A DNA stretch of 64,000 nucleotides. Source: Gammaproteobacteria bacterium (lineage in GTDB: Bacteria > Pseudomonadota > Gammaproteobacteria > Eutrophobiales > Eutrophobiaceae). Of the stretch, positions 25,565 through 42,011 are shown one piece after another. The notes below the pieces were generated by a model. It saw only the letters and a list, made by a program, of their open reading frames with translations, searched no databases and was not told the DNA's origin. Position numbers and translations under genes: made by a program. Every line of letters begins with the position of its first letter. The stretch's first letter is position 1. The stretch spans positions 1,632,001 to 1,696,000 of the forward strand of contig CBDEUK010000002.1 in the NCBI GenBank assembly GCA_965243205.1, in the 5' to 3' direction.

Positions 25565-26284
25565 TTACTCGGGTTTCGATAAAGTCTTTTCAATATCTTC
25601 AATTGATGTATGTCTAACATCTTTACCCTCAACAAAATAAATAACGTATTCACATATGTTGCGAGCATGATCAGCGATTCTCTCTAAAGCACGTGCCGTC
25701 ATCACAACATCAAGAGTTGCTGAAATACTTCGAGGATCTTCCATCATATAAGTAATAAGTTGGCGCAAAATAGCAGAGTACTGTTCATCAGATTCTGGTT
25801 CTTGGGCCGCTTCAAGTAATGCAGCTTTAGAGTCCATACGTGCAAACGCATCTAAAGAACCTAATAACATCTTTTGTACTAAATTACCCATCGCTTTAAT
25901 GCCGATGTAATACGATTTAGTACCTTGTTTGCCATCTAACTCTAATGTTGTTTTAGCAATCTTTTGAGTTTCGTCGCCAATACGTTCTAGATCAGTAATG
26001 GTTTTTATAATCGCCATAATCAAACGCAAGTCACTTGCTGCTGGCTGACGACGCGCTAAGATAGTTGTACATTCTTCATCAATTTCAATTTCCATTGAAT
26101 TGACAACAGGTTCTTGTCGAATTACTTCTTCTGCTAGCAGCAAATCCGACTCTATTAATGACTTTAAGGCATTAACCAATTGCTGTTCTACCAACCCACC
26201 CATTGCCATCACACGTTCGCGAGTATGTTCTAACTCTTGATCGAATTGTTTTGATATATGTTGAGGAAGATTTGTTGGCGACAT
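25565..26284 (-). CDS. phoU: Phosphate signalling protein PhoU
   Basis: HISKQFDQEL, ARRQPAASDLR, DLERIGD, LERIADHARNICE. Confidence 0.96.
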   Translation of the reverse strand: MSPTNLPQHISKQFDQELEHTRERVMAMGGLVEQQLVNALKSLIESDLLLAEEVIRQEPVVNSMEIEIDEECTTILARRQPAASDLRLIMAIIKTITDLERIGDETQKIAKTTLELDGKQGTKSYYIGIKAMGNLVQKMLLGSLDAFARMDSKAALLEAAQEPESDEQYSAILRQLITYMMEDPRSISATLDVVMTARALERIADHARNICEYVIYFVEGKDVRHTSIEDIEKTLSKPE

Positions 26285-26325
26285 ATTTTTATCTATATAA
26301 ACTTTTAAATTAAATTCTTAGGAAA

Positions 26326-27177
26326 TTAACCATAACGACCGGTTATATAATCTTCGGTCATCTTTTCTGCAGGAGTAGTAAACAAAGAGTTCGTATCATT
26401 AAACTCGATTAATTCACCTAAATACATATAAGCAGTATAGTCTGAAACTCGTGCTGCTTGTTGCATATTGTGCGTTACTATAACTATAGTGTAATTTGAT
26501 TTTAATTGATAAATTAATTCTTCGATTTTTAATGTCGAAATCGGATCGAGAGCAGATGCAGGCTCATCGAGTAATAATACTTCTGGCTCAATTGCAATCG
26601 CTCGAGCAATTACTAAACGTTGCTGCTGACCACCAGACAGACCCATTGCGTTATCATCTAAACGATCTTTTACTTCGTCCCATAAAGCTGCACCTATTAG
26701 TGATTTTTCTACCGCTTCTTTAAGCACGCGCCGATCTTTCACACCTTGGATTCGTAAACCATACGCAACATTTTCAAAAATAGATTTTGGAAATGGATTT
26801 GGTTTTTGAAACACCATACCCACTCTTCGACGAAGTTCAGCAACATTAACTGCTTTATCATATATATTTTCATCATGAAGCAACATTTGGCCATCGATAC
26901 GAACCGAATCAATCAAATCGTTCATACGATTCATACTTCTTAATAATGTTGACTTACCACAACCACTCGGGCCAATAAACGCAGTAACACGTTTTTCAGG
27001 TATCGTCATATCGATTGATTTCAATGCCTGTTTATCACCGTAATATAAATTGAAGTCCTTTACATCGATACAAACTTTTTCATCATTAAGGTTAAGCTCA
27101 CTGCCAGACTTGGTAACTGAACCTAAATCTATAGAATGTGTTTTTGAACCTGGAACTTGCTCTACGCTGTCCGACAT
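26326..27177 (-). CDS. pstB: Phosphate ABC transporter ATPase
   Basis: [35 protein letters not shown]; probable ATG at 27177. Confidence 0.96.
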
Positions 27178-27202
27178 ACCATTTCCTGTCAATATTGTTT
27201 GA

Positions 27203-28864
27203 TTACTGTTGTTCTGTTGCACGGTACTTCTCTCTAAGCCTATTACGAATTTTTATCGCTGTCAGGTTTAAAACTATAATAATTAAAATTAATAATAATG
27301 CTGTCGCATACACCAACGGTCTAGCAGCCTCCACATTTGGGCTTTGAAAACCAACATCATAGATATGGAAGCCTAAATGCATAAATTTTCGATCTAAATG
27401 TAAATATGGAAAATTACCATCTAGAGGTAATGATGGTGCCAATTTTACAACACCCACTAACATCAAAGGCGCCACTTCACCCGCAGCTCGAGCAACCGCT
27501 AAAATTAAACCTGTCATCATGGCAGATGCCGTCATCGGCAAGACTGTTAGCCATAATGTTTCGGCTTTCGTTGCTCCTAATGCCAAACTCCCTTCGCGAA
27601 TTGAACGCGGCACGCGTGATAGCCCTTCCTCAGTTGCAACAATAACGACAGGAACTGTCAATATTGCTAACGTTAATGAAGCCCACATCAATCCTGGTGT
27701 TCCAAACGTAGGTGCTGGTAATGCTTCTTGAAAAAATAACTGGTCGATGGAACCGCCAAGAAAGTAAACAAAAAAACCTAAGCCAAAAACACCATAAACA
27801 ACCGATGGCACACCTGCTAAATTATTCACCGCGATTCGTATCAAGCGCGTAACGGGTCCTTGCTTAGCGTATTCACGCAAATATACAGCAGCTACTACAC
27901 CAAATGGCGTAACTAATACGGCCATGATTATCACCATCATCACTGTACCAAAAATAGCTGGGAAGATTCCGCCTTCGGTATTTGCCTCTCGAGGCTCATC
28001 ACTAACAAACTCCCATAGCTTCTCTAAATAGAAGCCGAGCTTTTGTATGAAACTCATTTCATTTGGCCGAAACACTCTTACTATCTTCGATAACGGTATT
28101 TCAACCTCCTTACCATCTGCAAGTGTTGCCATAAGCGAGGTTTGATTAAGCTCTTGATAAAGACCAGAAAGCTTCGCTGTGTGTTCTTCATAATCCTTTT
28201 GCAACTCACTGCGCTTTTGTTTTAATTCGGTAACAGCTTCATCCGTTTTTTTATTATTGAGTTCTAAACCACGTTCTTTTAAACGCAGCCCTTCCATTTT
28301 ATAGTTAATTCTACCGATTAATTTTTGTTCTATGTAACGAATGTTTTGAAAAACTTCACTGGTATGTTCTATTTCTTTTTGTAACAACACCCAAGAATCA
28401 ACATTACCTTCAATCAATTCACCATTACGTTTTAATCCTGAAAGAAAACCATAAAAATTACCCCATTCACGTCTTTCTATCACAACAACTTCTTCAGGAA
28501 CCTTAAGCTCAGAGATACCTTGTTGGTTAATCCACCTAAAATCTAAACCATAATGATCTCGGTTACCCGTTTTAATTAATTGACGCTCAACGATTGTATT
28601 TGGATCATCTTCTGTAACTGACGCCCCTGCTTGTGAAGCGGGTACTGTTTCTGTTCCAACGACTTCACCAAGAATGACACTTTGCTCATCACCATCTTGA
28701 TACTGAAATTGAACCACTGGATCAGGCCAAAAATGACCAAGCCCTCTCACGGCAATCAAACCGATGAGTCCAACCACCATAATAATTGATAACGTTACAG
28801 CAGCAGCATTCAACCAAATGTATGGCTCTCCACTTGATAACCAATTTTTTATATTTTTTTTCAT
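27203..28864 (-). CDS. pstA: Phosphate ABC transporter permease PstA (long form)
   Basis: [35 protein letters not shown]; extra periplasmic coiled-coil domain. Confidence 0.94.
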
Positions 28865-28876
28865 AATGATGCGAGC

Positions 28877-31147
28877 TTATAAAGTGCTGTATTTTACACG
28901 TAATCTTTGTCTCACCAGCTCTGCGATTGTATTGAATGCAAATGTCGCGACAAACAATACTAAGCCGGCTAAAAATAAAATTCGATAATGGGTACTGTCT
29001 ACCTCAGACTCAGGCATTTCTACTGCGATATTGGCAGATAAGGCGCGAAAACCTTCAAAAATATTCATATCCATGATCGCTGTATTACCCGTTGCCATGA
29101 CCACGATCATCGTTTCACCCACGGCACGGCCTAAACCTATCATAATTGCTGAGAAAATCCCTGGACTCGCGGTTAATAAAACGACACGAACCATCGTCTG
29201 CCAACGTGTTGCACCGAGAGCTAAAGAGCCCGTGGTTAATTGCTTAGGCACACTGTAGATCGCATCTTCACTGATAGAAAATATTGTAGGAATGACAGCA
29301 AAACCCATCGCTATACCAACCACGAGTGAGTTACGTTGATCAAAATCTAATCCCAAATTATTAGTAATCCAAAACGGCATATTACCGTCAAACAAGGCTG
29401 CTTCAATCGGCTGACTAATATTGATACTAATGAAAATAGCTATGATAAAAACGGGTATCAGTAATGCAGATTCCCAACCGTCAGGTATAGTGAGCCTGAT
29501 AGAATCTGGCGTCTTGTGCCAAAGATACGAAGCTAAAAATGTTACTGACGGTAAAACAAACAAGAGAATAAAAAGTCCGGGCATATGCATTTCAACAAAT
29601 GGCGCAAACCAAAGCCCTGCTAAGAACCCTAAAATAACCGTGGGTAATGCTTCCATAATTTCAATGGTCGGTTTTACAAAACCTCGCATTTGTGGCGACA
29701 TAAAATAAGCCGTGTAAATTGCACCACAAATCGCCATAGGCACAGCGAACAACATTGCATAAAACGCAGCCTTTAATGTGCCAAAGGCAAGTGGCGTTAA
29801 ACTAAATTTAGGTTCAAAATCGCTGCTGGCAGAAGATGATTGCCAAATATATTCAGGCTTATCGCGGCTTTCATACCAGACTTTGCCCCAAATGGAATTC
29901 CAAGAAACTTCAGGGTGTTCATTATCGACATGCCAGTATTGTAATGATTTATCCGCTTTCTCTATCAATAATGCATTGGCTCGAGGAGAAATAGCTAATG
30001 ACAGTGGTGAATCTTGAGCAATTTTTTCTGACTTAACCACTCTGTGTGCAGTAGTGTGATAAATAGACAAATAACCGTCTTTATCTATGGCAGCAAAACC
30101 TTTACGGAAATATTCAGGGGCTATTTTTTGAATAGCAGAATCTTGCTCATCAAAATAGCGAATTTCTTTTAATGAATAATCATTATTCTCGTCACGGACT
30201 GGAAACCATTGTGTAATCCGCCCTCGACTATCGCCAACTAATATTGAAATACCTCCGCTTAAAAATTCTATACTAGAGATATTAACTTCATTTGGAACCA
30301 GCGTTACTTGATCGACCAAATTTGGTTTTTCAATATCGCTAATATCATAATATTCAACTTTTCCATCAATACGTACGACATAAAGCTCGCGTTGTTCGAC
30401 ATCAATTAAAATATGGGTTGGTTTTTGTTGTATTTCTAGGTAAGAACTGACTTCAGTAATTTCAACTTCATCACTGAGCATATTTTCTTCTTTAAGCAAC
30501 CCTTTTAAATAGACAGTATTGCCTGCGACAGCGGCAATAGTCACCTGCTCTTCATCGTATTGTGCGCTAACTATTTCGATAGCTTTTGTATCATCCGCAA
30601 TTTGGATAGGCTCTTCACCAAATGGAAACAAAAAAGACGGCGTTATCAAACGCTGATCGTTTGGATAAGTTACCTCATAATGATGTTGAATTAGGGAAAC
30701 ACTGCCATTATCAAAACCAAATGCTAATAATGCTTGAGACGCATCTCCATTAGAAAAAGCAGTAATGGCATTAGAAGAATCTTCAAAAAGTGTGTTTTGT
30801 AAAATAACTTCCCCATTTGCAGCTTTGAAGAATGTAAGTTCACCATCCTCACCAACTCTCAGAGCCACTTCTCTTTGTTCTTCCATTGCATAATACAAAC
30901 TAGTTTGTTGCGATCCTGGAACTGTATACTCCTTAATCAATTCGATATGCGCTGACTTGAACATTGGTAAAACTACATACAACAAATAGAACGCAATTAA
31001 AACAATTGCACCAATAACACTCACCCCTCCAAACGCCATTAAGTATTTCGTTAATGCATCGGTAATATCTCGACGTTTTCTGTGTCTTTTCGCAGCAGGG
31101 GAAGAAAAGTCAGGGAATGAACTTGTATTTTTAGTTGTTGTATTCAT
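28877..31147 (-). CDS. pstC: Phosphate ABC transporter permease PstC (long form with large periplasmic domain)
   Basis: FGTLKAA, KPTIEIMEALPTV, SLALGATRWQT, GRAVGETM. Confidence 0.93.
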   Translation of the reverse strand: MNTTTKNTSSFPDFSSPAAKRHRKRRDITDALTKYLMAFGGVSVIGAIVLIAFYLLYVVLPMFKSAHIELIKEYTVPGSQQTSLYYAMEEQREVALRVGEDGELTFFKAANGEVILQNTLFEDSSNAITAFSNGDASQALLAFGFDNGSVSLIQHHYEVTYPNDQRLITPSFLFPFGEEPIQIADDTKAIEIVSAQYDEEQVTIAAVAGNTVYLKGLLKEENMLSDEVEITEVSSYLEIQQKPTHILIDVEQRELYVVRIDGKVEYYDISDIEKPNLVDQVTLVPNEVNISSIEFLSGGISILVGDSRGRITQWFPVRDENNDYSLKEIRYFDEQDSAIQKIAPEYFRKGFAAIDKDGYLSIYHTTAHRVVKSEKIAQDSPLSLAISPRANALLIEKADKSLQYWHVDNEHPEVSWNSIWGKVWYESRDKPEYIWQSSSASSDFEPKFSLTPLAFGTLKAAFYAMLFAVPMAICGAIYTAYFMSPQMRGFVKPTIEIMEALPTVILGFLAGLWFAPFVEMHMPGLFILLFVLPSVTFLASYLWHKTPDSIRLTIPDGWESALLIPVFIIAIFISINISQPIEAALFDGNMPFWITNNLGLDFDQRNSLVVGIAMGFAVIPTIFSISEDAIYSVPKQLTTGSLALGATRWQTMVRVVLLTASPGIFSAIMIGLGRAVGETMIVVMATGNTAIMDMNIFEGFRALSANIAVEMPESEVDSTHYRILFLAGLVLFVATFAFNTIAELVRQRLRVKYSTL

Positions 31148-31214
31148 TTAATTACTATAAGAGATGTTTGTGGCAACATTGTGAAGGCAATATAAACTAA
31201 GCGAATCTAGAAAG

Positions 31215-31244
31215 AAATAACCCCACAGAGAAGTGGGGTTATTT
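31215..31244 (-). terminator. Stem-loop between pstS and pstC (partial terminator or mRNA stabiliser)
   Basis: aaataaccccac-agagaa-gtggggttattt, 12-bp perfect stem. Confidence 0.7.
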
Positions 31245-31279
31245 AATTATAAGAAATGGATTCTTGACTAAAAAAGCGG

Positions 31280-32251
31280 CTATTTCGAAATTTTGTTTAT
31301 TTCATTTTCTGCAACTTTAGCAGGTAATGGTATATATCCATCCTTTACTACGACTAGCTGACCGACTTTTGATAAAACCATTTTAACGAACTCAGTCTCG
31401 ATCGGACCTAGTGGTTTATTAGGCGCTTTGTTCACATAAACATATAAAAAACGACCTAATGGGTATTTACCCGCTGATGCATTTTCTGGGGTAGCTTCCA
31501 CAAATTTACCGCCTGGTTTTTTCGATAACGGAATCGCTTTAACACCCGAGGTTTTGTATCCAATACCTGAATAACCAATACCATTGATTGATTTGGTAAC
31601 ACCTTGAACAACAGACGCAGAACCAGGTTGTTCATTTACACTATTTTTGTAGTCACCTTTACATAAAGCTTTCTTCTTAAAGTAGCCATAAGTACCAGAA
31701 ACTGAATTTCGGCCGTATAACTGGACTGGACGGTTTGCCCATTCGCCTGTTAAACCTAGTTGGCCCCATTTGGTGATATTTTCTGAATAGCCACATTTGC
31801 GTGTTGCGGAAAAAACGGCATCGACCTGAGCAATAGACATTCCTTCAATTGGGTTATCTTTATGGGTATAGACAGCAAGCGCATCGATTGCAACTGCAAT
31901 AGGTGTTGGCTTATATCCGTATTTAGATTCAAAAGAAGCAATTTCTTTGTCCTTCATCTTACGACTCATTGGTCCGAAGTTTGAGGTGCCTTCTGTCAAA
32001 GCGGGTGGCGCAGTTGACGAACCTGCGGCTTGAATTTGTACATTTACATTTGGATATAAACGTTTGAATTCTTCTGCCCATAGAGTCATTAAGTTCGCTA
32101 AGGTATCAGAACCAACACTGATAATACTGCCAGAAACACCGCTGGCTTTTTCATAGTCGGCCAAACCTGGATCGACTTTATCATCAGCGAAGGCCGAACC
32201 ACTCATCATAGTGAAAGCTGCCAAACTTAATGTAAGCAGTTGTTTTTTCAT
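31280..32251 (-). CDS. pstS: Phosphate ABC transporter substrate-binding protein
   Basis: Signal peptide, [27 protein letters not shown]; ATG at 32251 behind GGAG. Confidence 0.95.
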
Positions 32252-32320
32252 AAAAATCTCCAAATAAAATAATTGTTTGTTGTGTGATTATATATTTGAC
32301 AGCGACTATCGCTGTATTGC

Positions 32321-32360
32321 ATGACAAAAAGATTACCGTAATATGAAAGTTATATTACGG
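32321..32360 (-). promoter_or_regulatory. Tandem Pho boxes upstream of pstS
   Basis: Minus strand CCGTAAT-ATAA-CTTTCAT-ATTA-CGGTAAT-CTTT-TTGTCAT: four CTGTCAT-like heptamers at 11-bp spacing. Confidence 0.8.
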
Positions 32361-32375
32361 TTGTTAAAGTAGTTT

Positions 32376-33695
32376 CTAGGCTGTAATCCCTATGTCTTGA
32401 CTATCACGTATTACAATCATGTGTTTTGGAAAATCACAGCGAAAAGTACTGCCCTCACCATGAACACTTTCTACATGTAGTGTTGCATCATGTCTCGCCA
32501 TGATATGTTTTACGATAGCTAATCCCAAACCAGTACCACCCTTTTCTCTGGAACGTCCTTTATCGACGCGATAAAAACGCTCAGTTATTCGACCAATGTG
32601 TTCTTCTGGAATCCCTTCACCAGTATCAGATACTTGCAAATGCGCTCCGTTATCCGACTTATACCATCGAATACGAATGATCCCTCGTTCAGGTGTATAT
32701 TGAACAGCATTAAATACTAAGTTGGAAAACGCACTGTATATTTCTCCTTGATTACCTAATAAAAGTAACTCTGGATCTGATTCCATATAAAAAATATGGT
32801 TTTGTAACCCACTGATGGTCTCAGCTTCTTTGTAGATTGAAGAGAGTAACTCAGCGACATGTACTGTTTCTTGATTATTAGGGACTTCAGACGATTCTAG
32901 AGAAGAAAGCTTGAGAAGATCTTCTATCAGAGTTTGCATACGGCCTGTCTGAGAACGCATTTGCTGGATAATTGGAATCCAGCTTTCAGGGCATTCATCA
33001 TTATCGTCTTGAAATGCCTCAAGATAGCCTGCAATAACCGTCAATGGACTACGTAACTCATGTGATGCATTGGCAATAAAATCTCGCCGCATTTCATTCG
33101 CATTGTAAACACGACTAACATCGCGTGCGATCAATAAATATTGTGTCTCGCTAAACGGAACAATACGAAACTCTAAACGTAACTGCTCATTATGCGGTAA
33201 AAATAATTCCAAACTGTTTTCAAGCTGATTATCAGTCAAAGCTTTGAGGAACTCATTCAATTCAGGATGGCGCAATAAATTGGATATGCGTTGATTCATA
33301 TCTTGTGGCCAGTAAATATTCAAATATGATCCTGCTTTTCGATTAGCTCCAAGGATTTTACCTTGCTGATCTAACACCACTATGGCATCGGGAAGTGCAT
33401 TGGTAGCTTGTTGAAACTGTTTTAAATAGCCAGAAAGTTTTTCATCTCTATATTTGTAATGAGATTCTAAGGAATCGAATTTGGTAATAATTTCATCAAT
33501 ATAACCACCTTCAACAAATGGAGGGTTATCAGTTTTTTTATCGAGCCAGTCGATTAGGCTTTGTAATTTGATGAAATGAAAGACGACAAATGCCGACATG
33601 CCTATAAGAAAGCACAAAGCATAACTGCCTGAGAGATAGCCGGCAGACAAACTCAAAATGGCGAGTAACACAATTCGCCAAGAATATTGGCTCAT
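32376..33695 (-). CDS. phoR: Phosphate regulon sensor kinase
   Basis: FIANASHELRSPLT, NLVFNAVQYT, DTGEGI, TERFYRVD, GTGLGLAIVKH. Confidence 0.95.
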   Translation of the reverse strand: MSQYSWRIVLLAILSLSAGYLSGSYALCFLIGMSAFVVFHFIKLQSLIDWLDKKTDNPPFVEGGYIDEIITKFDSLESHYKYRDEKLSGYLKQFQQATNALPDAIVVLDQQGKILGANRKAGSYLNIYWPQDMNQRISNLLRHPELNEFLKALTDNQLENSLELFLPHNEQLRLEFRIVPFSETQYLLIARDVSRVYNANEMRRDFIANASHELRSPLTVIAGYLEAFQDDNDECPESWIPIIQQMRSQTGRMQTLIEDLLKLSSLESSEVPNNQETVHVAELLSSIYKEAETISGLQNHIFYMESDPELLLLGNQGEIYSAFSNLVFNAVQYTPERGIIRIRWYKSDNGAHLQVSDTGEGIPEEHIGRITERFYRVDKGRSREKGGTGLGLAIVKHIMARHDATLHVESVHGEGSTFRCDFPKHMIVIRDSQDIGITA

Positions 33696-33708
33696 TTCGA
33701 TAAAAAGT

Positions 33709-34401
33709 CTAGTCTACAGTTGAAAAACGATATCCAACGCTGCGTACTGTTTGGATAAACTTATCGAAATTATACGGCTCCAGAGTTTTTCGTAAACGAC
33801 GAATATGCACATCAACGGTACGTTCCTCAACATACACGTTTTGACCCCATACTTGATCCAGCAATTGAGATCTGGTGTAGACACGCTCAGGATGAGCAAT
33901 GAAGAAATGTAATAAGCGAAATTCGGTCGGACTAATATCAATACTATTACCGTTAGCCAGGACACGGTAAGTTTCAGGATCCAGAGTCAAACCCTTAACA
34001 CCTATCAAGCCCTTTCCATCGCCTTTTTTGCTACGACGGATAATAGCTTTGATTCGAGCAATTAATTCACGGGTAGAAAACGGCTTGGTGATGTAGTCAT
34101 CTGCACCAACATCCAAACCTTGGATCTTGTCTGATTCACCGGCTTTTGCCGTCAACATGACAATAGGAATATCCCGAGTATCAGGATTGTTTCTTAACCT
34201 ACGTAAATAATCTAAACCTGAAGTACCTGGAAGCATCCAATCTAACAAAATAAGATCAGGCAACTCTTGGGTATCAATAAATCGTTGCGCCTCTTCTACA
34301 CTCACCGCTTCGTTAAACTGATAACCCTCTTTCATCAGAGTATAGCCAAGCATTTCGCGAATGCCGTCTTCATCCTCAATGATCAGAATACGTCCTTTCA
34401 T
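33709..34401 (-). CDS. phoB: Phosphate regulon response regulator
   Basis: LLDWMLPG, GADDYITKPFS, VEERTVDVHIRRLRK; ATG 34401 preferred because ATG 34458 lies immediately under the Pho-box promoter. Confidence 0.95.
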   Translation of the reverse strand: MKGRILIIEDEDGIREMLGYTLMKEGYQFNEAVSVEEAQRFIDTQELPDLILLDWMLPGTSGLDYLRRLRNNPDTRDIPIVMLTAKAGESDKIQGLDVGADDYITKPFSTRELIARIKAIIRRSKKGDGKGLIGVKGLTLDPETYRVLANGNSIDISPTEFRLLHFFIAHPERVYTRSQLLDQVWGQNVYVEERTVDVHIRRLRKTLEPYNFDKFIQTVRSVGYRFSTVD

Positions 34402-34482
34402 TGGAGTAAGAAGGTGTGTGTCTGTGTTGTTGATATTTTCAAGTTGTGGCTCATTCATGGAATAACATTACAACCTCAGGAT

Positions 34483-34500
34483 ATTACAGAGGTATTACAA
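34483..34500 (-). promoter_or_regulatory. Pho box upstream of phoB (autoregulation)
   Basis: Minus strand TTGTAAT-ACCT-CTGTAAT, 11-bp period. Confidence 0.7.
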
Positions 34501-34578
34501 ATTCAAAAACAAAGTTTTAAATTCAACTTAGAACATTAAATCACTATCAAAAGTTATACCATCGAACGAAATAGTTCT

Positions 34579-34608
34579 AAAAAAGCCAGGCTTAAAATAA
34601 GCCTGGCT
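34579..34608 (-). terminator. Intrinsic terminator after the porin gene
   Basis: Minus strand agccaggctt-atttt-aagcctggct followed by a T run. Confidence 0.8.
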
Positions 34609-34621
34609 AGATTACTTTCAC

Positions 34622-36127
34622 TTAGAAGGATACATCCCACTGCACTCGGAATCGGTTATCGCTAAGGTCACGATTTACTAAACCATCTTCCAAAGTTAAA
34701 TAAGAAAAGTCCGCAGTAAGCTTGTTGTTATGCCCTGCAAAAAACCAGTTTGCACCGAGAGTGAACTCCTCTCGCTCATTGTCTCGAGAAATATCTGTGC
34801 CATTCGGTTCTTCAACAAAAGCGTAACGAGCCGCAAATTCGAGCTCTTTAGGTATAGCAGGAATCAAATGATGGAAAAAATAACCTGATTGTACATACGC
34901 GCCGGTTAAATCACTTGAAGTATTATTGACGGTGTCATCAATTGTTTTCCAATGGTATTCCTCTTGGAACGAGAAACCTTTCCATTTGAAAGCAAAACCT
35001 TGTGTGTATTGCTCAATTTCATACTGACCGTCAGCGGCAGTACTTGGACTAGCAAATCCATCTAAATTACCACAACCACTGGATGACCAACGAGTACAAC
35101 GGCCTTTGTTAGATGCTGCTGCAAATGAAAGACTGCCTGTTGGTTTTTCTGTGAACTCTACGTCCGTTTGACGCCACTTTAGATCACGACCAAGGAAGTT
35201 CCATTGCAGACGACCCATGTACAATAAGTCACCATCATCGTTACGAACACCGCGACCTTCACCGGTAAAAATACCGGCCCAATAACGTAAATCTGCTGGG
35301 GTATCTTTAAATAAACGACCGCGTACTTGGGCACCCACTTGACGATCAATTGTAAATATTCGATTCACAATGGAACGTTCAACAAACTGTTGGCGACCTG
35401 AAGAATCCACACGTTCACGGTTGTAATCAATTTTCCATTGACCAACACGCAAACCCAGCGCTTCGTATTTATCCAAAGTTATACGCCAATCAATTACTCT
35501 GGCACTCGAACTAGAACTACTGCTACTGCTGCTTCGAGTTGGCTGAAGGTCAACTTCGAAATAATATCCAATCCAAGGTCTAAACCCATGTCCGCCAATT
35601 TTCATGCGTAATCGACGTGCTTCAAATGTATTCTCAGTATCTGATTCGAAATCGCCGATATCACGAGGGTCACTTCTGGTTGGAGATGTGAAACGTAATT
35701 GGGCACGCCATTGCAGGTTTGTTTGCCAGTTCCCGTCACGGGATTCAAGGCGGAAACCCTTTTTGCCATGACTCACTTTTACAGGAAACTCATCCTCTAC
35801 CTTTTTAGCAACTTTATCTTCAGTTGATTTTTCAACCTTAGCTTCAATTGTTTTATCGAGCTTTTCATCGATAGCCTTATTAACTTTACGTTCAACAATT
35901 TCTTCAACTTGAGCATCAGAAGCAGCCGGACTCTCGAAATCTTTGCTAGATAGACTTGGTTTCTGTATTAATTCGTCATATTGTTCTTGGGTGATGGCAC
36001 CATTGCCCAATAGAATATCAAGAAGCGCTTTATCTGCTGAATATACGATTGTAGTTGCTAGCATAAGCACAAAAATCGCACATCCTCGATAAAAATCAGT
36101 ATGAGAGCGAAATAAATTCATAAGCAA
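34622..36127 (-). CDS. Phosphate-selective porin (OprO/OprP family)
   Basis: Signal peptide, FEARRLRMKIGG, GQWK, LGANWFFAGHNNKL, C-terminal Phe; sits in the Pho cluster with Pho boxes upstream. Confidence 0.82.
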   Translation of the reverse strand: MLMNLFRSHTDFYRGCAIFVLMLATTIVYSADKALLDILLGNGAITQEQYDELIQKPSLSSKDFESPAASDAQVEEIVERKVNKAIDEKLDKTIEAKVEKSTEDKVAKKVEDEFPVKVSHGKKGFRLESRDGNWQTNLQWRAQLRFTSPTRSDPRDIGDFESDTENTFEARRLRMKIGGHGFRPWIGYYFEVDLQPTRSSSSSSSSSSARVIDWRITLDKYEALGLRVGQWKIDYNRERVDSSGRQQFVERSIVNRIFTIDRQVGAQVRGRLFKDTPADLRYWAGIFTGEGRGVRNDDGDLLYMGRLQWNFLGRDLKWRQTDVEFTEKPTGSLSFAAASNKGRCTRWSSSGCGNLDGFASPSTAADGQYEIEQYTQGFAFKWKGFSFQEEYHWKTIDDTVNNTSSDLTGAYVQSGYFFHHLIPAIPKELEFAARYAFVEEPNGTDISRDNEREEFTLGANWFFAGHNNKLTADFSYLTLEDGLVNRDLSDNRFRVQWDVSF

Positions 36128-36311: not shown

Positions 36312-36344
36312 ATAAAAAACCCCGCAGAAAGCGGGGTTTTTTAT
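36312..36344 (-). terminator. Intrinsic terminator closing the redox operon
   Basis: ataaaaaaccccgc-agaaa-gcggggttttttat, 14-bp stem, just downstream of the globin stop. Confidence 0.88.
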
Positions 36345-36365: not shown

Positions 36366-36773
36366 TTAACTATTGGCAGCTTCTTTCATCACTGTTGCTA
36401 ATGTTACGTAAGTGTCAGTCCAAGCACCTTTCACGTCATCTGTGAAAGCGTCACCTAAACCGGCACCTAGTGTCCAAAGTAAAGCTTCAGCAACCGTATC
36501 GTAGTGCTCGTCCTTCACGCCATAATCAACATGCCGTTTTCCCAAATCTTGAACGGCAGGAACAATGGTATCTAACTTATCCAAACTATTGACTGCAGTT
36601 CCGATCATTTTCATTAATTTCTTACCTTGTTCAACCATGTCACCATTGAATAAGGATTTTAATTCAGGATCGAGCTCAAATAATTTACCGTAAAATAATT
36701 CTGCTGCTTTATCGGAAATAGGCACAACCTGTGCCCAGGTATCTTTTACTAACGTGACTTGTTCTGGTGTCAT
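36366..36773 (-). CDS. Single-domain globin (flavohemoglobin/Vitreoscilla Hb-like, no reductase domain)
   Basis: LFYGKLF (TyrB10), LKSLF (PheCD1), EQGKKL (GlnE7), LGKRHVDYGV (HisF8); no signal peptide. Confidence 0.9.
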   Translation of the reverse strand: MTPEQVTLVKDTWAQVVPISDKAAELFYGKLFELDPELKSLFNGDMVEQGKKLMKMIGTAVNSLDKLDTIVPAVQDLGKRHVDYGVKDEHYDTVAEALLWTLGAGLGDAFTDDVKGAWTDTYVTLATVMKEAANS

Positions 36774-36776
36774 TTG

Positions 36777-37154
36777 TTATTCCTCAGTTTTGTAACTCTT
36801 AGCCAACTCAACCATATAATCGACCGCGGCCTTAATTTCTTGATCTGTTAAATGTGGATTACCACCTCGTTCTGGCATCATTGCGTCATCTGGTCCAAAA
36901 AAACCTTCGATAGCATGTTGATATAAAACCTCTTTACCTTTTGCTATACGAAAACCCCATTGCTCGTAATCCAATGGGATTGGCGCATCGGCGACGCCCC
37001 AACCATGGCAACCCTCACAGGTTCCTAACCAGATTTCTTTTCCTTTTTGTAAATGTGGATCATCAAAATCACGATAACGGTCAGCATCTGCATGAACACT
37101 GACCGTGCTTAAGGAAAATGATGAAATCAAAATAAACGCTCTTAAGCCGAGCAT
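36777..37154 (-). CDS. Periplasmic cytochrome c5-family monoheme protein
   Basis: Signal peptide, CEGCH, HAIEGF, MMPERGG, AAVDYM. Confidence 0.88.
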   Translation of the reverse strand: MLGLRAFILISSFSLSTVSVHADADRYRDFDDPHLQKGKEIWLGTCEGCHGWGVADAPIPLDYEQWGFRIAKGKEVLYQHAIEGFFGPDDAMMPERGGNPHLTDQEIKAAVDYMVELAKSYKTEE

Positions 37155-37160: not shown

Positions 37161-37745
37161 TTACCCTTCGATTGGGATACGAATCACAACACCACCCATC
37201 ACATCACCCAGTTTGAAATCAGTCTTAGGTGTGTCTTTGTGTTCGTTGTGGCAACTCACGCAAACAGGCGCAACCGCAGGATCAGGATAAACAGCGGTAA
37301 AGTAGTTCACGCCACCTAACTCTTCAGTGGTGTAATAGTTTTCACCTTTGTTATCAAAAATGTACTGAAGACCTGTTTTTTCAGCATCGGTTTTTGGTGC
37401 GTTTTGTTTATTGATTGGCCATAGTGATTGCAAAGAATAACTGAAGGCATCGGTTTTCTTAGCCACTGACTCTGAACCAAAACGAAACATTTGTGCAGGT
37501 AATACTAATGCTTTGTCATCTTCAAAATGTTCACTGGCTTTGATGACTTTTTCTTTTTTCACCAAGCGGTTTACGATCTTTTTCGTATAAACTGCACGGT
37601 CTGTAGACATAACTAAATGTAACCAGTCCGCCATTTGCTTTGGGGTAAACATTGCAGTATCAGCAACCTCTGAAGAAACCGACACAGGCAAACTAACTGC
37701 TGCAGCGATAACGGAAGTTGCAATAAGTTTTTTAAATTTACTCAT
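37161..37745 (-). CDS. Periplasmic Tll0287-like (DUF3365) heme c protein
   Basis: Signal peptide, LPAQMF, WPINKQNAP, C-terminal CVSCH, FKLGDVMGGVVIRIP. Confidence 0.78.
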   Translation of the reverse strand: MSKFKKLIATSVIAAAVSLPVSVSSEVADTAMFTPKQMADWLHLVMSTDRAVYTKKIVNRLVKKEKVIKASEHFEDDKALVLPAQMFRFGSESVAKKTDAFSYSLQSLWPINKQNAPKTDAEKTGLQYIFDNKGENYYTTEELGGVNYFTAVYPDPAVAPVCVSCHNEHKDTPKTDFKLGDVMGGVVIRIPIEG

Positions 37746-37778: not shown

Positions 37779-39290
37779 TCATTCAGTTTCATTTTCTGCA
37801 TCAACTGAATCTGAATCTTGTTCTTGTTGCTCACGAAGTTTCTCTTGCTCGCGCAACTTACGACGTTTCTCTTCTGCTTCTATGGCACGTACCTCAGCCA
37901 TCTCAATACTTTTTATGTGCACAGAAGGTTTGCCATGAAAATTGTTTTTAATTAATTCTGGATCGGCTAAAGAATCCGTACTAAAACCAAGACCATGACA
38001 ATTCATACAAACTGGTCTTTGCATTTTTTCATTCGGTTTTAATGTCATGTTTTGATTGTGTTCGACTAAGCCCATATAGAACTCGCCATCAAAAAATTCT
38101 TTTTCAATACGCGGCATATGACAGGTAGCACAAGTAACGCCTGTTCCTTCTTTAGCTTCACCCGATAATTCTTTTTTCCACAAATCATGATGAGGAGAAT
38201 CGATATAGGCCAAGCTATGTTCATCTTTATGACAACTTAAACATGCTTCGACCTTGGCTTTTTTGATATCAAACTTATGAGCTGAATGACAGCTATTACA
38301 GGATAGATTTTTATCATGCGCTTCTTTTTTCATCGGCAAGCGCGCTAAGGAAGGTGACATTGGGTCCAAATCAAATTTAAGATTATCTTTGTCCAAACGC
38401 ATTCCATGTTTGCCTCCTAAAAAGCCTTTTACTTCTTCAGAATGACAAGTCGTGCATTGTTCTTGAGTCGGTTTATCGATCCAAACCAGTTTCTTATCTT
38501 CTTTTTCTTTTCCAACTTCTTTTTGATGACAAGCGGTACAATTCACGCCCGCATTGGCATGCGCCGTTTGAAACCATTCATCGATAATATGTGTATCGTT
38601 TGCTTTATCTTTAGGCGCATCTAATGCAGTTCTTTCTAACTTTTCTAAAGGATATTGATCAATCGGATAACCTGGAAAGATAGGTGCTATTTCAAGGAAA
38701 TTTAAATCAGGAAACGAATCAAGTTTTTCTAAAATATCGGCTTCACCAACATGCTTGGCAAGGAAGTCTTCGTATAAAGCTTGGTTATCATGATAATTAT
38801 GACAGCCGGCTGAAGCACAAGTATCAAAGGCCATACCTTCATGACTCGGCCGTTCTTCAGCGATATCCTCATGACATTTAAAACAATAATCGATAGGTAA
38901 TGTAAGCCCCATGTCATGAGTAATTTCAGGTCGATGTTCTACATGACAAGTCACACAATAACGTGCATCTAATTTCGCTAAACGATCTGCGTTACGTGGA
39001 TCTGTAAATTTACTTTTAGGGTGTTTGTCTCTGGCTTCTTTTAAGGCATTACCATGACACTTTACACAAGAATCTTGTAATGCTTCTTTCATCACCTTGG
39101 CATCTTCAAACACTTCGGTATGACAAGCATTACAGGCGAGTTCTATTTGATAATGACCATGACTGGTCTTACCTGGTAAGAACAACGTTTTATCTGCAGT
39201 TTCAGTATTAAATTTCATTGCATAATGTGTTGCAAAAGCAATTGTCAAAACTATCCAAACAACCCATAAAATTGTGTTTCGTTTAAGCAT
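37779..39290 (-). CDS. Membrane-anchored multiheme cytochrome c (10 CxxCH + 1 CxxxxCH)
   Basis: CNACH, CVKCH, CVTCH, CFKCH, CASAGCH, CTACH, CTTCH, CNSCH, CLSCH, CATCH, CMNCH; N-terminal TM. Confidence 0.9.
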   Translation of the reverse strand: MLKRNTILWVVWIVLTIAFATHYAMKFNTETADKTLFLPGKTSHGHYQIELACNACHTEVFEDAKVMKEALQDSCVKCHGNALKEARDKHPKSKFTDPRNADRLAKLDARYCVTCHVEHRPEITHDMGLTLPIDYCFKCHEDIAEERPSHEGMAFDTCASAGCHNYHDNQALYEDFLAKHVGEADILEKLDSFPDLNFLEIAPIFPGYPIDQYPLEKLERTALDAPKDKANDTHIIDEWFQTAHANAGVNCTACHQKEVGKEKEDKKLVWIDKPTQEQCTTCHSEEVKGFLGGKHGMRLDKDNLKFDLDPMSPSLARLPMKKEAHDKNLSCNSCHSAHKFDIKKAKVEACLSCHKDEHSLAYIDSPHHDLWKKELSGEAKEGTGVTCATCHMPRIEKEFFDGEFYMGLVEHNQNMTLKPNEKMQRPVCMNCHGLGFSTDSLADPELIKNNFHGKPSVHIKSIEMAEVRAIEAEEKRRKLREQEKLREQQEQDSDSVDAENETE

Positions 39291-39320: not shown

Positions 39321-41306
39321 CTAAAAGTAATACGTCTTAAATATGTGGAAACCCAGTAACACTGGTAATGGCCAAAACAATAAAATATGTAACCAAAGCC
39401 CAAGTGAACGAACTTGTTTCACTAAAGAAGCTTCTAAATTGTGTTCCATCGCGATCACACTAGCGACGATAGCGCCCACTAAAATTAATCCGGTGAAAGA
39501 CATCATCAACATAAAGTTCAAGTTTTCACCCAAACGGAAACCGGTATGAACAAGCAAAACAAAAATGGCTAGACCGCCAACGATGGCATGCAATAAACGC
39601 CAGACAGGAAAGTCGCCCCATTTAAACCATGTAAAGCGTTTACGTAAAGAAAGTAGTAAGACTAATACTGAGATACCTAATAAGGTAAAACCTGTTATCT
39701 GTTTATAAAGACTCGTGGTCCAAACAACATCGTATTGATAAATCTGTTGCACGGATGTGTTATAAGGAATTGCTGGAAATAAATAAGCGATCAATGCCAT
39801 GAGAATAAAGATGGCTGAACTTAAAAATAAAGTTCTATAAGCCTTAACGGGATCAAGTTTTACACCCCCAAGCAAATTAGCGAGCAAAGGCTTGCATGAA
39901 CCACAAGTTGTGCCTGCATTGGTTTTGTCGCAAAGCGAAACCATAGAATCACAACCAGACTTAATGGCAGAAGTTAACTGACCACGAGTGACTGAATTAC
40001 AAGAACAGATTGTTGCCTCAGTAGGCCATCGGCTGATGTCTTCTAAATCATCATCGCCCCACAATGAGCCAGTTTCTTGAAATTGATATAACGTCCACGG
40101 AAAAAATAATTTTCCTTTTTTTACTTGTTCGCGAAGTTTAATTAACTCAGGCCATTCACCAATTGCGATCACGCCAACTACCTGACCCCGATAAACATTT
40201 AACTTTCGATAAACAGTATCTTCTTGATAAACATAACTGGTATAAGACACAGCGCTATCACTCACGTCTCCCATACTAAAAACCGCTTGTCCTACAACCT
40301 TTAAACTAGTGGCGAGTACCGTTCCTTTATATTCAGTTGGAATGGAAAGGATATCTCTGGCTGCGATTGAAGCCTGTTCATAACCAGGAGCGACTATGCC
40401 GTAGACTTCGCCTTGATGTTCACAACATTCCCCAATCGCATAGATATCAGGATCGGATGTTTGCATCAGATCGTTGACTTTAATCCCTTTGCCATAAGCC
40501 AGCCCTGCTTCTTTAGCTAGATCAATATTCGGTCTTATGCCTGCTGATATGATTAAGGTATCGCAATCAAGGATTTCGCCAGAGCGCAAAACAATCGATT
40601 CGACTTTGGTTCCACCTTGAATTTCCTGGATACTATTTTGTAGGTACACATTTATGCCAAGTTTTTCGACTTCCTCTTGAAATAGCGCTGCGCCATCATC
40701 ATCCAGCTGACGAAACATCAAACGGTTGTTATGTTCAATAACCGTAACTTGCGTAGAAAAACGCTGCATAGCTCTGGCGGCTTCTAAACCAAGCAACCCA
40801 CCACCTAAAATAACGGTATTACGACTGAGGGTTCTTCTAGCGATTAAATGTTCTGTATCTTTTAAATCACGAAATTGATAAACACGCTTTAGATTAATGC
40901 CAGGTATGCTCTTAGGCACATAAGGACTCGAACCTGTTGCTAAAATTAGCTTTTCATATTCTTGAATATTTCCAAATTCATCGATAACGTTTTTATTTGC
41001 TCTGTCAATCTCGACAACCTTGCAGTTATAACGAGTAATAACAGGATCAAAATCGAGTACATCAGATGAGTAATAAATATCTTCTTGATTGATATCACCC
41101 GCAAGCAAAGAAGAAAGTTGAACTCGGTTATATGGCTGCCAAGGCTCATCGCCATAAATAACGATCGGATGATGCAGAGACTGTCTATGCAACTCCTCTA
41201 ATATCCGAATACCAACAGGCCCAGTCCCTACGACCACAATCGGTTTTTTGCCATTCAATAACACTTTTTCCGTAGTGCCATGAAAATTATCTACAGCGAC
41301 ATTCAC
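39321..41306 (-). CDS. NirB-like FAD/NAD(P)H oxidoreductase + BFD-like [2Fe-2S] domain fused to a C-terminal multi-TM domain
   Basis: VVVGTGPVG, YNRVQLS, LILATGS, LGGGLLGLEAA, IYAIGEC, LKVVG; CSC...CGSC; about five C-terminal TM helices with four His; no siroheme/4Fe-4S domain. Confidence 0.85.
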   Translation of the reverse strand: MNVAVDNFHGTTEKVLLNGKKPIVVVGTGPVGIRILEELHRQSLHHPIVIYGDEPWQPYNRVQLSSLLAGDINQEDIYYSSDVLDFDPVITRYNCKVVEIDRANKNVIDEFGNIQEYEKLILATGSSPYVPKSIPGINLKRVYQFRDLKDTEHLIARRTLSRNTVILGGGLLGLEAARAMQRFSTQVTVIEHNNRLMFRQLDDDGAALFQEEVEKLGINVYLQNSIQEIQGGTKVESIVLRSGEILDCDTLIISAGIRPNIDLAKEAGLAYGKGIKVNDLMQTSDPDIYAIGECCEHQGEVYGIVAPGYEQASIAARDILSIPTEYKGTVLATSLKVVGQAVFSMGDVSDSAVSYTSYVYQEDTVYRKLNVYRGQVVGVIAIGEWPELIKLREQVKKGKLFFPWTLYQFQETGSLWGDDDLEDISRWPTEATICSCNSVTRGQLTSAIKSGCDSMVSLCDKTNAGTTCGSCKPLLANLLGGVKLDPVKAYRTLFLSSAIFILMALIAYLFPAIPYNTSVQQIYQYDVVWTTSLYKQITGFTLLGISVLVLLLSLRKRFTWFKWGDFPVWRLLHAIVGGLAIFVLLVHTGFRLGENLNFMLMMSFTGLILVGAIVASVIAMEHNLEASLVKQVRSLGLWLHILLFWPLPVLLGFHIFKTYYF

Positions 41307-41339
41307 GTGATTTTAAGTTTCTTAATTTGTATTTTTTGC

Positions 41340-41390
41340 AAAAAAAAACGTCGTTACATAAATCAATTAACTGATTCTGCAAACGACGCC
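41340..41390 (-). terminator. Leader (attenuator) terminator upstream of the redox operon
   Basis: Minus strand GGCGTCGTT-TGCA-GAATCAGTT/AATTGATTT-ATGT-AACGACG followed by 9 T; lies between promoter and first gene. Confidence 0.72.
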
Positions 41391-41397
41391 TTTGTCG
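41384..41397 (-). promoter_or_regulatory. ANTAR (NasR/NasT)-type RNA hairpin
   Basis: CGAC-AAAGGC-GTCG: hexaloop with G at position 4, 3' arm shared with the terminator 5' arm. Confidence 0.65.
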
Positions 41398-41469
41398 ATA
41401 CCAATGAAGTTCAATATAACGAGTATTTGGTTACGATTGAAAACGCCCATCGGCTATATCTGGAATATG

Positions 41470-41486
41470 AGCAGTATGCGTGCCAA
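41470..41486 (-). promoter_or_regulatory. Sigma54 (-24/-12) promoter
   Basis: Minus strand TTGGCACGCATACTGCT matches TGGCAC-N5-(T/C)TGC. Confidence 0.82.
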
Positions 41487-41558: not shown

Positions 41559-41608
41559 TGCACATATAGAGAGCGCTAGCACCAATATAAAGCGATTAGA
41601 TTGGTGCA
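41559..41608. promoter_or_regulatory. NtrC-like enhancer sites
   Basis: TGCACATATAGAGAGCG, AGCACCAATATAAAGCG and half-site TTGGTGCA resemble TGCACCA-N3-TGGTGCA, ~75-120 bp upstream of the -24 box. Confidence 0.55.
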
Positions 41609-41741: not shown

Positions 41742-42011
41742 ATGAAGATGATCCGAAACCTACTAATGCTTTTTTGCTTAATCTTTACTCAAGGTATTTT
41801 TGCGGAAGCAATTATCGACATCAATACAGCTGATAAAACCACATTAACTACTATGTTAAATGGTATCGGCGAGAAAAAAGCCGAAGCAATCATTGCTTAT
41901 CGAGAAGAAAATGGTCCTTTTAAATCAATTGAAGAATTAGCAAATGTAAAAGGCATTGGCGAAGCAACCGTTGAAAAAAACCAAGATATCATAACTGTCC
42001 AAAAACAATAG
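41742..42011 (+). CDS. ComEA-family helix-hairpin-helix DNA-binding protein
   Basis: Signal peptide, IDINTAD, GIGEKKAEAIIAYREENGPF, VKGIG. Confidence 0.9.
   Translation: MKMIRNLLMLFCLIFTQGIFAEAIIDINTADKTTLTTMLNGIGEKKAEAIIAYREENGPFKSIEELANVKGIGEATVEKNQDIITVQKQ

Follow-up and report, generated by a model that had tools for sequence, protein, structure and literature searches.

In a 64,000-nucleotide stretch of a gammaproteobacterial genome (contig CBDEUK010000002.1, positions 1,632,001 to 1,696,000; hereafter the window) we found a gene for a 661-amino-acid protein, read from the minus strand at 39321..41306, in which the front half of the nitrite reductase NirB is joined to a five-helix transmembrane (TM) domain carrying two pairs of histidines. 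It is the first of five same-strand genes. In our reading, this protein takes electrons from NAD(P)H (reduced nicotinamide adenine dinucleotide or its phosphate) and passes them through flavin adenine dinucleotide (FAD), a [2Fe-2S] cluster and two haems b to a periplasmic wire of eleven c-type haems, probably disposing of by-products of the nitric oxide (NO) type. We give this reading a probability of roughly 0.6. The domain make-up, the conservation, the operon and its synteny, the link to nitrate assimilation, the common regulatory elements and the predicted interface were all computed here.

The gene and the three parts of its product lie as follows:

39321..41306, minus strand: fused flavoprotein/TM gene (gene 1), GTG start, 661 amino acids, frame open over 661 codons

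40107..41249, minus strand: residues 20–400, NirB/Flp-type FAD and NAD(P)H flavoprotein (Pyr_redox_2, Pyr_redox and Rubredoxin_C; Foldseek; Flp-like identity)

39870..40013, minus strand: residues 432–479, BFD-like [2Fe-2S] domain (Pfam), with C434, C436, C468 and C471 invariant

39324..39857, minus strand: residues 484–661, five-TM domain, presumed to hold two haems b, with H573, H587, H640 and H654 invariant

A preliminary description, made from the letters of the sequence, had seen the NirB/NasB pattern in the first ~480 residues, about five TM helices with four histidines in two pairs behind it, and had expected a domain search to return Pyr_redox_2 and Fer2_BFD without NIR_SIR. Exactly this was obtained. 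Pfam matched Pyr_redox_2 at residues 22–315 (E 2.4e-56), Pyr_redox at 164–241, Rubredoxin_C at 332–398 and Fer2_BFD at 432–479 (E 4.7e-10), and the Pfam scan gave no match to the siroheme domain NIR_SIR in the protein. The NCBIfam model for NirB, TIGR02374, aligned residues 23–480 with profile positions 1–466 of 794 (E 1.8e-121), showing that the front half of NirB alone is present; positions 467–794 remained without a match and the score of 407 bits is below the cut-off of 578. The motifs that had been named are indeed found in the translation: PYNRVQLS at 58–65, LKVVG at 335–339, the cluster cysteines C434-x-C436...C468-xx-C471, and the histidine motifs WRLLH573...VH587TG and WLH640...GFH654IF, with 14 positions between the histidines of each pair. 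The whole-protein AlphaFold2 model (predicted local distance difference test, pLDDT, 79.7) was matched by Foldseek to ferredoxin-reductase folds only, all in the front half (e.g. 3lxd, E 1.4e-30). Because the siroheme half is absent, the score stays below the cut-off and a true NirBD is encoded elsewhere in the genome, we conclude that the 661-residue protein is not a nitrite reductase. The suspicion that automated annotation would mislabel it as one proved right for names given by the Joint Genome Institute, where several homologues are called 'nitrite reductase (NADH) large subunit'; in NCBI they carry the name 'FAD-dependent oxidoreductase'.

The architecture is strongly conserved. With the protein's own entry set aside, the best 120 homologues listed are all 628–720 residues long, cover 95–100% of the query and are 46–71% identical to it. 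In all 40 aligned full-length homologues from this identity range there is no variation in the glycine motifs for FAD and NAD, in the four cysteines of the cluster or in H573, H587, H640 and H654, and H622 is conserved to at least 90%. The four histidines of the two pairs are likewise invariant in all of 30 TM domains taken out of genome loci (31–71% identity). Since the histidine pattern holds in 40/40 and 30/30 sequences, it is not a chance feature of one of them. Two alignments each leave out one locus with an in-frame stop. The homologue in genome G169 (locus L094) has one in-frame TAG in its TM-domain frame, for which a sequencing error or a pseudogene is possible.

Of 401 genomes sampled evenly from the class, 26, the own genome counted, encode the TM domain, and 21 of these have open frames of 660–732 residues. 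For synteny we compared 28 other loci from different genera (E <= 1e-8, at least 50% coverage), a procedure that undercounts short proteins and short contigs. The flavoprotein is fused to the TM domain in 26 of these loci; in one the TM domain stands alone, and in one it is fused to a module of the ferredoxin–NADP+ reductase (FNR) type. Thus the fusion is the rule and no assembly or gene-calling error; the TM domain is not, as the preliminary description had allowed for, a separate gene joined here by a sequencing mistake. An artefact of this kind, or a TM tail that is the decayed remnant of something else, has next to no chance of being the explanation: we found nothing in its favour, the 661 codons are open, the lengths of the best 120 homologues listed and of the frames in 21 of 26 genomes speak against it, and the TM domain is as conserved as the remainder of the protein. 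These observations together refute it.

Modelled alone with AlphaFold2, the TM domain gave a confident helical bundle (pLDDT 92.2, predicted template modelling score 0.85) with helices at 490–509, 533–555, 566–588, 596–619 and 626–660. H573 and H587 are placed on TM3, H640 and H654 on TM5, so that the predicted topology agrees with the two pairs noticed at first. Since the flavoprotein has to lie in the cytoplasm and the TM2–TM3 loop holds K556 and R557, both invariant, TM3 and TM5 would run from inside to outside. H573 and H640 would then be on the cytoplasmic side and H587 and H654 on the periplasmic side. This 2+2 arrangement of histidines is the pattern of cytochrome b and ferric-reductase domains. 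Residues 490–661 matched no Pfam family above its cut-off (DUF6713 alone appeared, with 17.7 bits against a cut-off of 27). Among 30 family members, lax thresholds gave weak matches to DUF4405 (20/30, best E 3.3e-5), Ni_hydr_CYTB (7/30) and Ferric_reduct (6/30, best E 6.7e-4). In favour of the presumed cofactors, the haem proteins that came closest to the model in structure, the designed 4D2 and E. coli CybB, are four-helix bundles with two haems. A preprint describes a DUF4405 protein that binds haem b and has four central histidines (bioRxiv 10.1101/2024.03.13.584918). A genome-wide profile search with DUF4405 (PF14358) did not pick up the 661-residue gene, and a protein atlas search, with best scores of 0.83–0.84 to unnamed clusters, gave no lead. 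From the sequences and models together we regard the domain as a remote, so far unannotated member of the di-haem cytochromes b and assign it to no Pfam family.

When 1.84 billion proteins were searched with a profile of the TM domain, 1152 representative clusters matched at E <= 0.001, 395 of them at E <= 1e-30, and in 150 of 150 listed representatives the domain reaches the C-terminus of the protein. Fourteen shorter representatives were scanned. Thirteen of them, which have a reductase or BFD match, begin inside that part and so look like N-terminally cut fragments of the fusion; the remaining one, with 570 residues, is near full length. Of five longer representatives, P0247 carries the NirB-type module, and P0158, P0213, P0270 and P0281 carry a different cytoplasmic module, in the order cNMP_binding or EF-hand, Fer2_BFD, FAD_binding_6, NAD_binding_1 and then the TM domain. 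The EF-hands were seen in P0158, and the FNR-type form was also found in a genome locus (L103:1495-3456, minus strand). Two unrelated NAD(P)H flavoreductases have thus been joined to the same TM domain, which is our strongest comparative argument that the job of this domain is to take electrons from NAD(P)H. The fusions to cNMP-binding domains and EF-hands suggest a control by second messengers or Ca2+, in parallel to NOX5 and DUOX. At locus L103 the TM-domain gene is followed by the gene of a multihaem cytochrome with 11 CxxCH motifs.

Four further genes and a terminator complete the operon:

37779..39290, minus strand: gene 2, membrane-anchored undecahaem cytochrome c of 503 amino acids with an N-terminal TM anchor, 10 CxxCH and 1 Cx4CH motifs and 11 invariant distal histidines

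37161..37745, minus strand: gene 3, secreted Tll0287/DUF3365 (Cache-haem) c-type protein with one CxxCH and no distal cysteine (Pfam; orthologue alignment)

36777..37154, minus strand: gene 4, secreted monohaem cytochrome c of class-I type (Pfam)

36366..36773, minus strand: gene 5, cytoplasmic single-domain globin of the Hmp/Vgb/Bjgb type, 135 amino acids, no signal peptide (Pfam Globin, E 4.4e-18; Hmp profile over residues 2–132)

36312..36344, either strand: bidirectional intrinsic terminator at the end of the operon, a 14-pair stem with T runs on both sides

The undecahaem cytochrome gene lies directly downstream of the TM-domain gene in 27 of the 28 loci, the Tll0287-like gene is present in 25, the globin gene in 17 and the monohaem cytochrome gene in 13. 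Among 29 copies of the large cytochrome 27 have the set of 10 CxxCH and 1 Cx4CH, and none has a CxxCK motif. In 20 aligned copies 11 histidines outside the motifs are invariant, for 11 haems. With one distal ligand for each haem the protein looks like a wire, not an enzyme. Its best sequence match in the PDB is the octahaem nitrite reductase TvNiR (E 6.6e-8), over residues 338–455 only, and with 48.7 bits it stays below the cut-off of the DmsE/MtrA family TIGR03508 (192.2). We considered a catalytic nitrite reductase at this place and rejected it on the missing CxxCK, the 11 invariant histidines and the partial TvNiR match. In one 72% complete genome (G397, loci L083/L115) the gene after that of the TM-domain protein matches residues 2–163 of the undecahaem cytochrome only, in a 362-residue frame with 4 CxxCH, and it is not followed by genes for a Tll0287-like protein, a cytochrome c or a globin; the copy may have decayed or been rearranged.

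The complex of TM domain and undecahaem cytochrome was predicted from alignments that we made ourselves, with two haems riding along. In three runs the interface score ipSAE was 0.69, 0.69 and 0.70, and the best of three controls reached 0.00; shared contacts were at least 98% and the pLDDT of the partner at least 78. In a calibration the same mark was reached for 58 of 80 complexes of solved structure and for 2 of 110 mismatched pairs, a comparison made for runs of another kind than ours, with its self-made alignments and ligand, which therefore fits only roughly. On the cytochrome side the predicted interface comprises residues 12–27 (the anchor helix), 35–41, C53 and H57 of the first haem motif, and 117–138. 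On the TM side it comprises domain residues 29–37, 47–49, 108–114 and 162–178, which are residues 512–520, 530–532, 591–597 and 645–661 of the full-length protein; in the model these are the periplasmic loops and helix ends flanking H587 and H654. The prediction supports binding of the undecahaem cytochrome at the periplasmic face of the TM domain. Together with the undecahaem gene downstream in 27 of 28 loci, this predicted docking lends support to the early idea of an electron exporter.

In the proposed mechanism the cytoplasmic NirB/Flp-type domain would oxidise NAD(P)H and pass the electrons from FAD to the BFD-type [2Fe-2S] cluster. From there they would reach the haem b held by H573/H640 and then the one held by H587/H654, the two being stacked across the membrane between TM3 and TM5. 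The periplasmic haem would hand the electrons to the first haem of the membrane-anchored, all-bis-histidine undecahaem cytochrome, and this wire could in turn supply two secreted c-type proteins, the Tll0287-like one and the monohaem cytochrome. The donor is probably NADH rather than NADPH, because in the alignment an acidic residue is usual after the second Rossmann strand, as in VIEH; a residue of this kind at this place points to NADH. We infer the haem b binding and cofactor content, the direction of flow, the donor specificity, the reductase of the globin and, above all, the periplasmic substrate. Both the membrane potential and the order of potentials to be expected favour a flow to the outside. 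Such a flow would conserve no energy, which suits a protective role better than a respiratory one.

The direction could also be the opposite one, with periplasmic donors feeding the undecahaem cytochrome, the haems b, the [2Fe-2S] cluster and FAD, and finally NAD+ or cytoplasmic nitrate- or nitrite-reducing enzymes. Multihaem chains are reversible in principle, and judged by record titles the carriers include sulfur- and hydrogen-oxidising lithotrophs (Chromatiaceae, Hydrogenophilales, Thiogranum, Cupriavidus necator). Such an import is nevertheless very improbable: inward electrons would move against the membrane potential, the reduction of NAD+ from c-type haems is strongly uphill by established bioenergetics, the organism with its aa3, bo3 and cbb3 oxidases looks like an ordinary aerobe, and the alternative architecture again brings in an NAD(P)H-oxidising FNR module.

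In the region upstream of the fusion gene we found four elements:

41579..41608, minus strand: perfect 8-bp inverted repeat GCACCAAT-N13-ATTGGTGC, ~95–135 nucleotides upstream of the sigma-54-type site, read from the sequence

41470..41485, minus strand: sigma-54-type promoter-like site TGGCAC-N5-CTGCT, the sole TGGCAYN5YTGCW match in the window

41400..41454, minus strand: leader hairpin I, holding TACTCGTTAT (RNA fold of 41307–41480), a sequence common to the leader of the genome's own nas genes

41340..41393, minus strand: leader terminator, a long stem with nine consecutive T behind it (fold with a minimum free energy of −35.9 kcal/mol, z −2.17)

A sigma-54 promoter combined with a leader terminator is the textbook control of proteobacterial nas operons, which serve nitrate assimilation. 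The half-sites GCACCAAT and ATTGGTGC resemble NtrC half-sites, at an unusual spacing, and may form a site for an enhancer-binding protein. The gene for sigma-54, rpoN, was found in the genome. The 12-mer GACAAAGGCGTC (41385–41396), with which the 5' arm of the terminator begins, has two copies in the 2.79-Mb genome, one in the leader of our operon and one in the leader of nrtA in the nas genes ~520 kb away. This nas leader has the same promoter element, a T-run terminator with GACAAAGGCGTC at its foot and TACTCGTTAT upstream of it. In addition, a relative from the same family (genome G326) has the operon with the same promoter element and a similar layout of the leader terminator.

The nas set of the genome comprises NasT, a NasS-like protein, a 456-residue protein at the place of NrtA (without an NCBIfam match at 1e-10), NrtB, NrtD, NarK, a kinase/phosphatase, NirB, NirD, a 417-residue NirB-N/NasC-like reductase and NasA. 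In the other loci, nas genes often stand next to the module itself. NasT, an ANTAR response regulator, is encoded within 10 kb of it in 13 of 28, NrtA/NasS proteins (NMT1_2) beside it in 12 of 28, and one or the other in 15 of 28; parts of nitrate ABC transporters are further neighbours, as is a true NirB in two loci. Four loci (L119, L122, L123 and L125) show the order nasT, module, nrtA-nrtB-nrtD. From the elements shared with the nas leader we conclude that the operon probably belongs to the nas regulon, with antitermination of the NasT type; NasT is encoded in the genome. In the mechanism proposed here the operon would thus be switched on with nitrate assimilation, by the sigma-54 promoter and the NasT-type leader terminator. 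That the 661-residue protein replaces NirB or the reductase of NasA was considered and rejected, as NirBD, the 417-residue NasC/Flp-like reductase and NasA are encoded elsewhere.

Two observations concern the nas genes as such. The own nas cluster contains, between narK and nirB, a 571-residue fusion of a PP2C-type phosphatase and a Ser/Thr kinase (L110:7107-8819, minus strand). Furthermore, a protein of ~400–440 residues often adjoins nasT and the module, and in L001, L002 and L003 it is of the Alginate_exp porin type. The copy in the own genome (L110:16281-17591, minus strand) has no NCBIfam match at E <= 1e-10 and carries a sigma-54-type site and a T-run leader upstream. Nitrate or nitrite may pass the outer membrane through this protein beside nasT.

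The globin suggests what the module may remove. For the CHARACTERISED relative, three Bradyrhizobium loci were found in which a globin 49–54% identical to the product of gene 5 is encoded directly upstream of a Flp-like flavoprotein, which is 38–40% identical to residues 21–408 of the 661-residue protein. A globin and a flavoprotein of the NirB-N type are thus encoded together here as in the Bjgb–Flp pair. Among the globin orthologues FY, Q, H and Y are invariant at the expected places, B9/B10, E7, F8 and G5. A search of the genome with PF00042 found neither Hmp itself nor another globin of the Hmp type. The only other match (G000:C2:737419-737721, minus strand, locus L138; 26.5 bits) lies in a 1463-residue frame and may belong to a globin-coupled sensor. 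According to Cabrera et al. 2016 (PMC4724949), the expression of Bjgb and Flp depends on NasT, Flp is required for growth on nitrate, and both proteins protect against NO that arises in nitrate assimilation. In our scheme the cytoplasmic globin would be the counterpart of Bjgb and the flavoprotein domain that of Flp; the flavoprotein may additionally reduce the globin, as proposed for Flp. NO and related reactive by-products of nitrate and nitrite reduction would be removed by the globin inside and by the c-type haems outside.

For the outer side, the Tll0287-like orthologues have no conserved cysteine in their alignment besides those of the CxxCH. A preprint reports that Cache-haem domains without the distal cysteine have an exchangeable ligand site and bind NO tightly, and that stand-alone domains of this kind behave as redox proteins (bioRxiv 10.64898/2026.02.01.703092). 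One may go further and see in the five genes a nitrogen-cycle enzyme system not recognised before, in which the NADH-powered reductase would feed the 11-haem wire and this the Cache-fold c-haem with its open site, so that NO, nitrite or hydroxylamine would be reduced or scavenged in the periplasm and the nitrogen recovered for assimilation, the globin acting likewise inside. We hold this extension only tentatively and consider it unlikely. Denitrification enzymes were rejected as electron acceptors in this organism, since the queries with PF00115, PF02239 and NirK found none: PF00115 returned aa3, bo3 and cbb3 oxidases only and no NorB; PF02239, for NirS, gave weak propeller matches in frames of 323–354 residues; and NirK reached 29.7 bits against a cut-off of 296, results that are no proof of absence.

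The same relationship to Bjgb and Flp allows a different interpretation, in which the protein works chiefly in the cytoplasm, as a reductase of the Flp/NasC kind for the globin, the assimilatory nitrate reductase or both, and the TM haems and periplasmic cytochromes serve as a sensor of redox state or NO, or as a membrane tether, instead of a conduit. In its favour, homology links the front half of the protein with Flp and the globin with Bjgb; growth on nitrate and tolerance of NO both require Flp (PMC4724949); and Cache-haem proteins without distal cysteine can act as NO sensors (bioRxiv 10.64898/2026.02.01.703092). However, a separate 417-residue NirB-N/NasC-like reductase is already present beside NasA in the same genome, Pfam finds no signalling output domain in the operon, and an 11-haem wire is a costly tether. 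Moreover, it is the globin that is missing from 11 of 28 loci, and the cytochrome from 1 of 28 only. We therefore give this interpretation a small chance.

Several points weigh against the export of NAD(P)H electrons through haems b to the undecahaem wire. For every member of the family the contents of FAD, iron–sulfur cluster and haem b are deduced from sequences and models. Foldseek found no match for the TM-domain model in the PDB at E <= 0.001; talin, DUOX1, FdnI and SpNOX appear as weak rows. With VIA-align against 48,161 chains talin rods come first (Z 11), and the best haem proteins, the designed 4D2 (Z 10.7, root-mean-square deviation 2.3 Å over 101 residues) and E. coli CybB 5oc0 (Z 10.6, 3.3 Å over 128 residues), followed by cytochrome b6 (Z 8.9), FdnI 1kqg_C (Z 8.8), SpNOX (Z 7.7) and NOX5 (Z 7.6–7.7), score within the range of unrelated helical bundles. 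The own TM domain has no match to DUF4405, Ni_hydr_CYTB or Ferric_reduct even at E <= 10, and hhalign of the TM family with eight gammaproteobacterial DUF4405 proteins, a small alignment, gave a probability of 9% (E 0.0036), though it does align the W..H-13-H helix. The score of the complex is the model's confidence and no measurement. As for the physiology, an export of NADH electrons would spend reducing power and conserve no energy, and none of the three c-type proteins has a recognised catalytic site. The regulatory evidence has its own limits. For the sigma-54 consensus TGGCAYN5YTGCW, 0.32 chance matches are expected in the window, and 27 of 100 shuffles contain at least one. Thirteen of the 28 loci have no nas gene in the stretch examined, several of these contigs being shorter than 9 kb. 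Finally, NAD(P)H need not be the sole donor, because at the locus L102/L132 the TM domain occurs without a fused reductase.

This last locus bears on a quinone-linked function, by which the di-haem TM domain would carry a quinone site and the protein would be an NADH:quinone oxidoreductase, or else the TM domain a quinol dehydrogenase that feeds the undecahaem cytochrome in the manner of CymA, NapC or CbcL, with the flavoprotein as an optional second input. At L102/L132 the TM domain and the cytochrome are indeed present without the reductase, and the structurally closest haem proteins include CybB 5oc0, FdnI 1kqg_C and cytochrome b6, all of which bind quinones. Against this, the NirB-type reductase is fused in 26 of 28 loci and an FNR-type one in another, the fused forms scanned also contain a BFD [2Fe-2S] domain, which directly precedes the TM domain in the NirB-type form, and two unrelated NAD(P)H reductases have been recruited to one TM domain. 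A quinone-linked function is thus rather improbable in our view, and NAD(P)H-driven export remains the preferred reading.

The principle of such an export, in which an NAD(P)H flavoreductase supplies two haems b with electrons for passage across a membrane, is already known from NOX, FRE, STEAP and Fre–MsrQ. In NOX5, DUOX, SpNOX, FRE and STEAP one chain likewise unites a cytoplasmic NAD(P)H flavoreductase with a TM domain. NOX, FRE and STEAP also share the pattern of two helices, one helix apart, each with two histidines ~13–14 residues apart, that stack two haems b. In STEAP the reductase lies N-terminal to the membrane domain, as in the 661-residue protein, and like NOX5 some relatives of the TM domain carry EF-hands. 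The differences are nevertheless clear. The reductase of the 661-residue protein is N-terminal, of the NirB/Flp type with two dinucleotide folds, and has an extra [2Fe-2S] cluster, whereas NOX and FRE have an FNR-type reductase after the membrane part; even the FNR-bearing relatives keep FNR before the TM domain. There are five TM helices here and six in NOX and FRE. The Ferric_reduct family (PF01794) is not matched by the own protein and only weakly by 6 of 30 relatives, and the Z-scores of 7.6–7.7 to SpNOX and NOX5 are within the noise of helical bundles. The proposed acceptor is a multihaem cytochrome c, while NOX, FRE and STEAP use O2 or a metal chelate.

Fre–MsrQ–MsrP, PepSY_TM proteins (FoxB), DUF4405 proteins and FezC are likewise built on small haem-b membrane proteins with central conserved histidines that pass cytoplasmic electrons to periplasmic partners. 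Their NAD(P)H reductase is, in contrast, separate or unknown, and they deliver to MsrP, flavinylated proteins or siderophores. More relatives of our TM domain touch DUF4405 (20/30) than any other Pfam family, yet the own domain is missed by its model and hhalign stays at 9%. CymA, NapC/NirT, CbcL and NrfH resemble our system in that a redox module of the cytoplasmic membrane feeds periplasmic bis-histidine c-type haems; their donor is the quinol pool, and here it would be a fused NAD(P)H flavoprotein. NirB and NasB share the order of FAD, NADH and BFD [2Fe-2S] domains and the place in the nas regulon, but they possess the siroheme/[4Fe-4S] catalytic half that the 661-residue protein lacks. The narK-bjgb-flp-nasC genes of Bradyrhizobium have adjacent globin and flavoprotein genes and an association with NasS–NasT, with a role in NO detoxification during nitrate assimilation (PMC4724949). 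There, however, Flp is soluble and has ~400 residues, the match ending before the BFD and TM parts; the operon contains no c-type cytochromes, and the gene order differs.

New are the components and the way they are arranged, the extra [2Fe-2S] cluster, the multihaem cytochrome as partner and the connection with nitrate. Full-text literature searches, preprint supplements not included, returned no published description of the 661-residue protein, its TM domain or the operon. In bacteria, cytoplasmic electrons are known to cross the inner membrane mostly by way of the quinone pool, and single-chain conduits from NAD(P)H to the outside are known mainly from NOX, FRE and STEAP. If our reading is true, the family represents a second, independently assembled design made of flavoprotein, [2Fe-2S] cluster, di-haem b domain and multihaem partner. 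The family is widespread and lies inside nitrate-assimilation clusters, yet no function has been described for it, and some of its members are mislabelled as nitrite reductase. Should the nitrogen-oxide reading hold as well, hundreds of proteobacterial lineages would possess a bacterial NOX-like transmembrane oxidoreductase for nitrogen oxides. An understanding of the module would correct the annotation and give a further component to the models of how aerobic and lithotrophic proteobacteria assimilate nitrate and deal with NO. A use of the compact NADH-driven transmembrane electron module in bioelectrochemistry is conceivable.

Other genes lie on both sides of the operon. At 21896–36127, next to it, is a complete phosphate block with ppx, ppk, phoU, pstB, two long pst permeases (553 and 756 residues), pstS, phoR, phoB and a porin. 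We considered this porin (34622–36127) as an outer-membrane partner of the module and rejected it, as it has its own terminators, is a member of the Pho block and is not conserved beside the module. It is a phosphate-selective porin O/P of 501 residues with a Ser-rich stretch and a weak match to the ExtI porin (48.9 bits against a cut-off of 150). On the other side, divergent from the operon, the plus strand encodes at 41742–42011 a small secreted ComEA-like helix-hairpin-helix protein of 89 residues, followed by leuS, lptE and holA.

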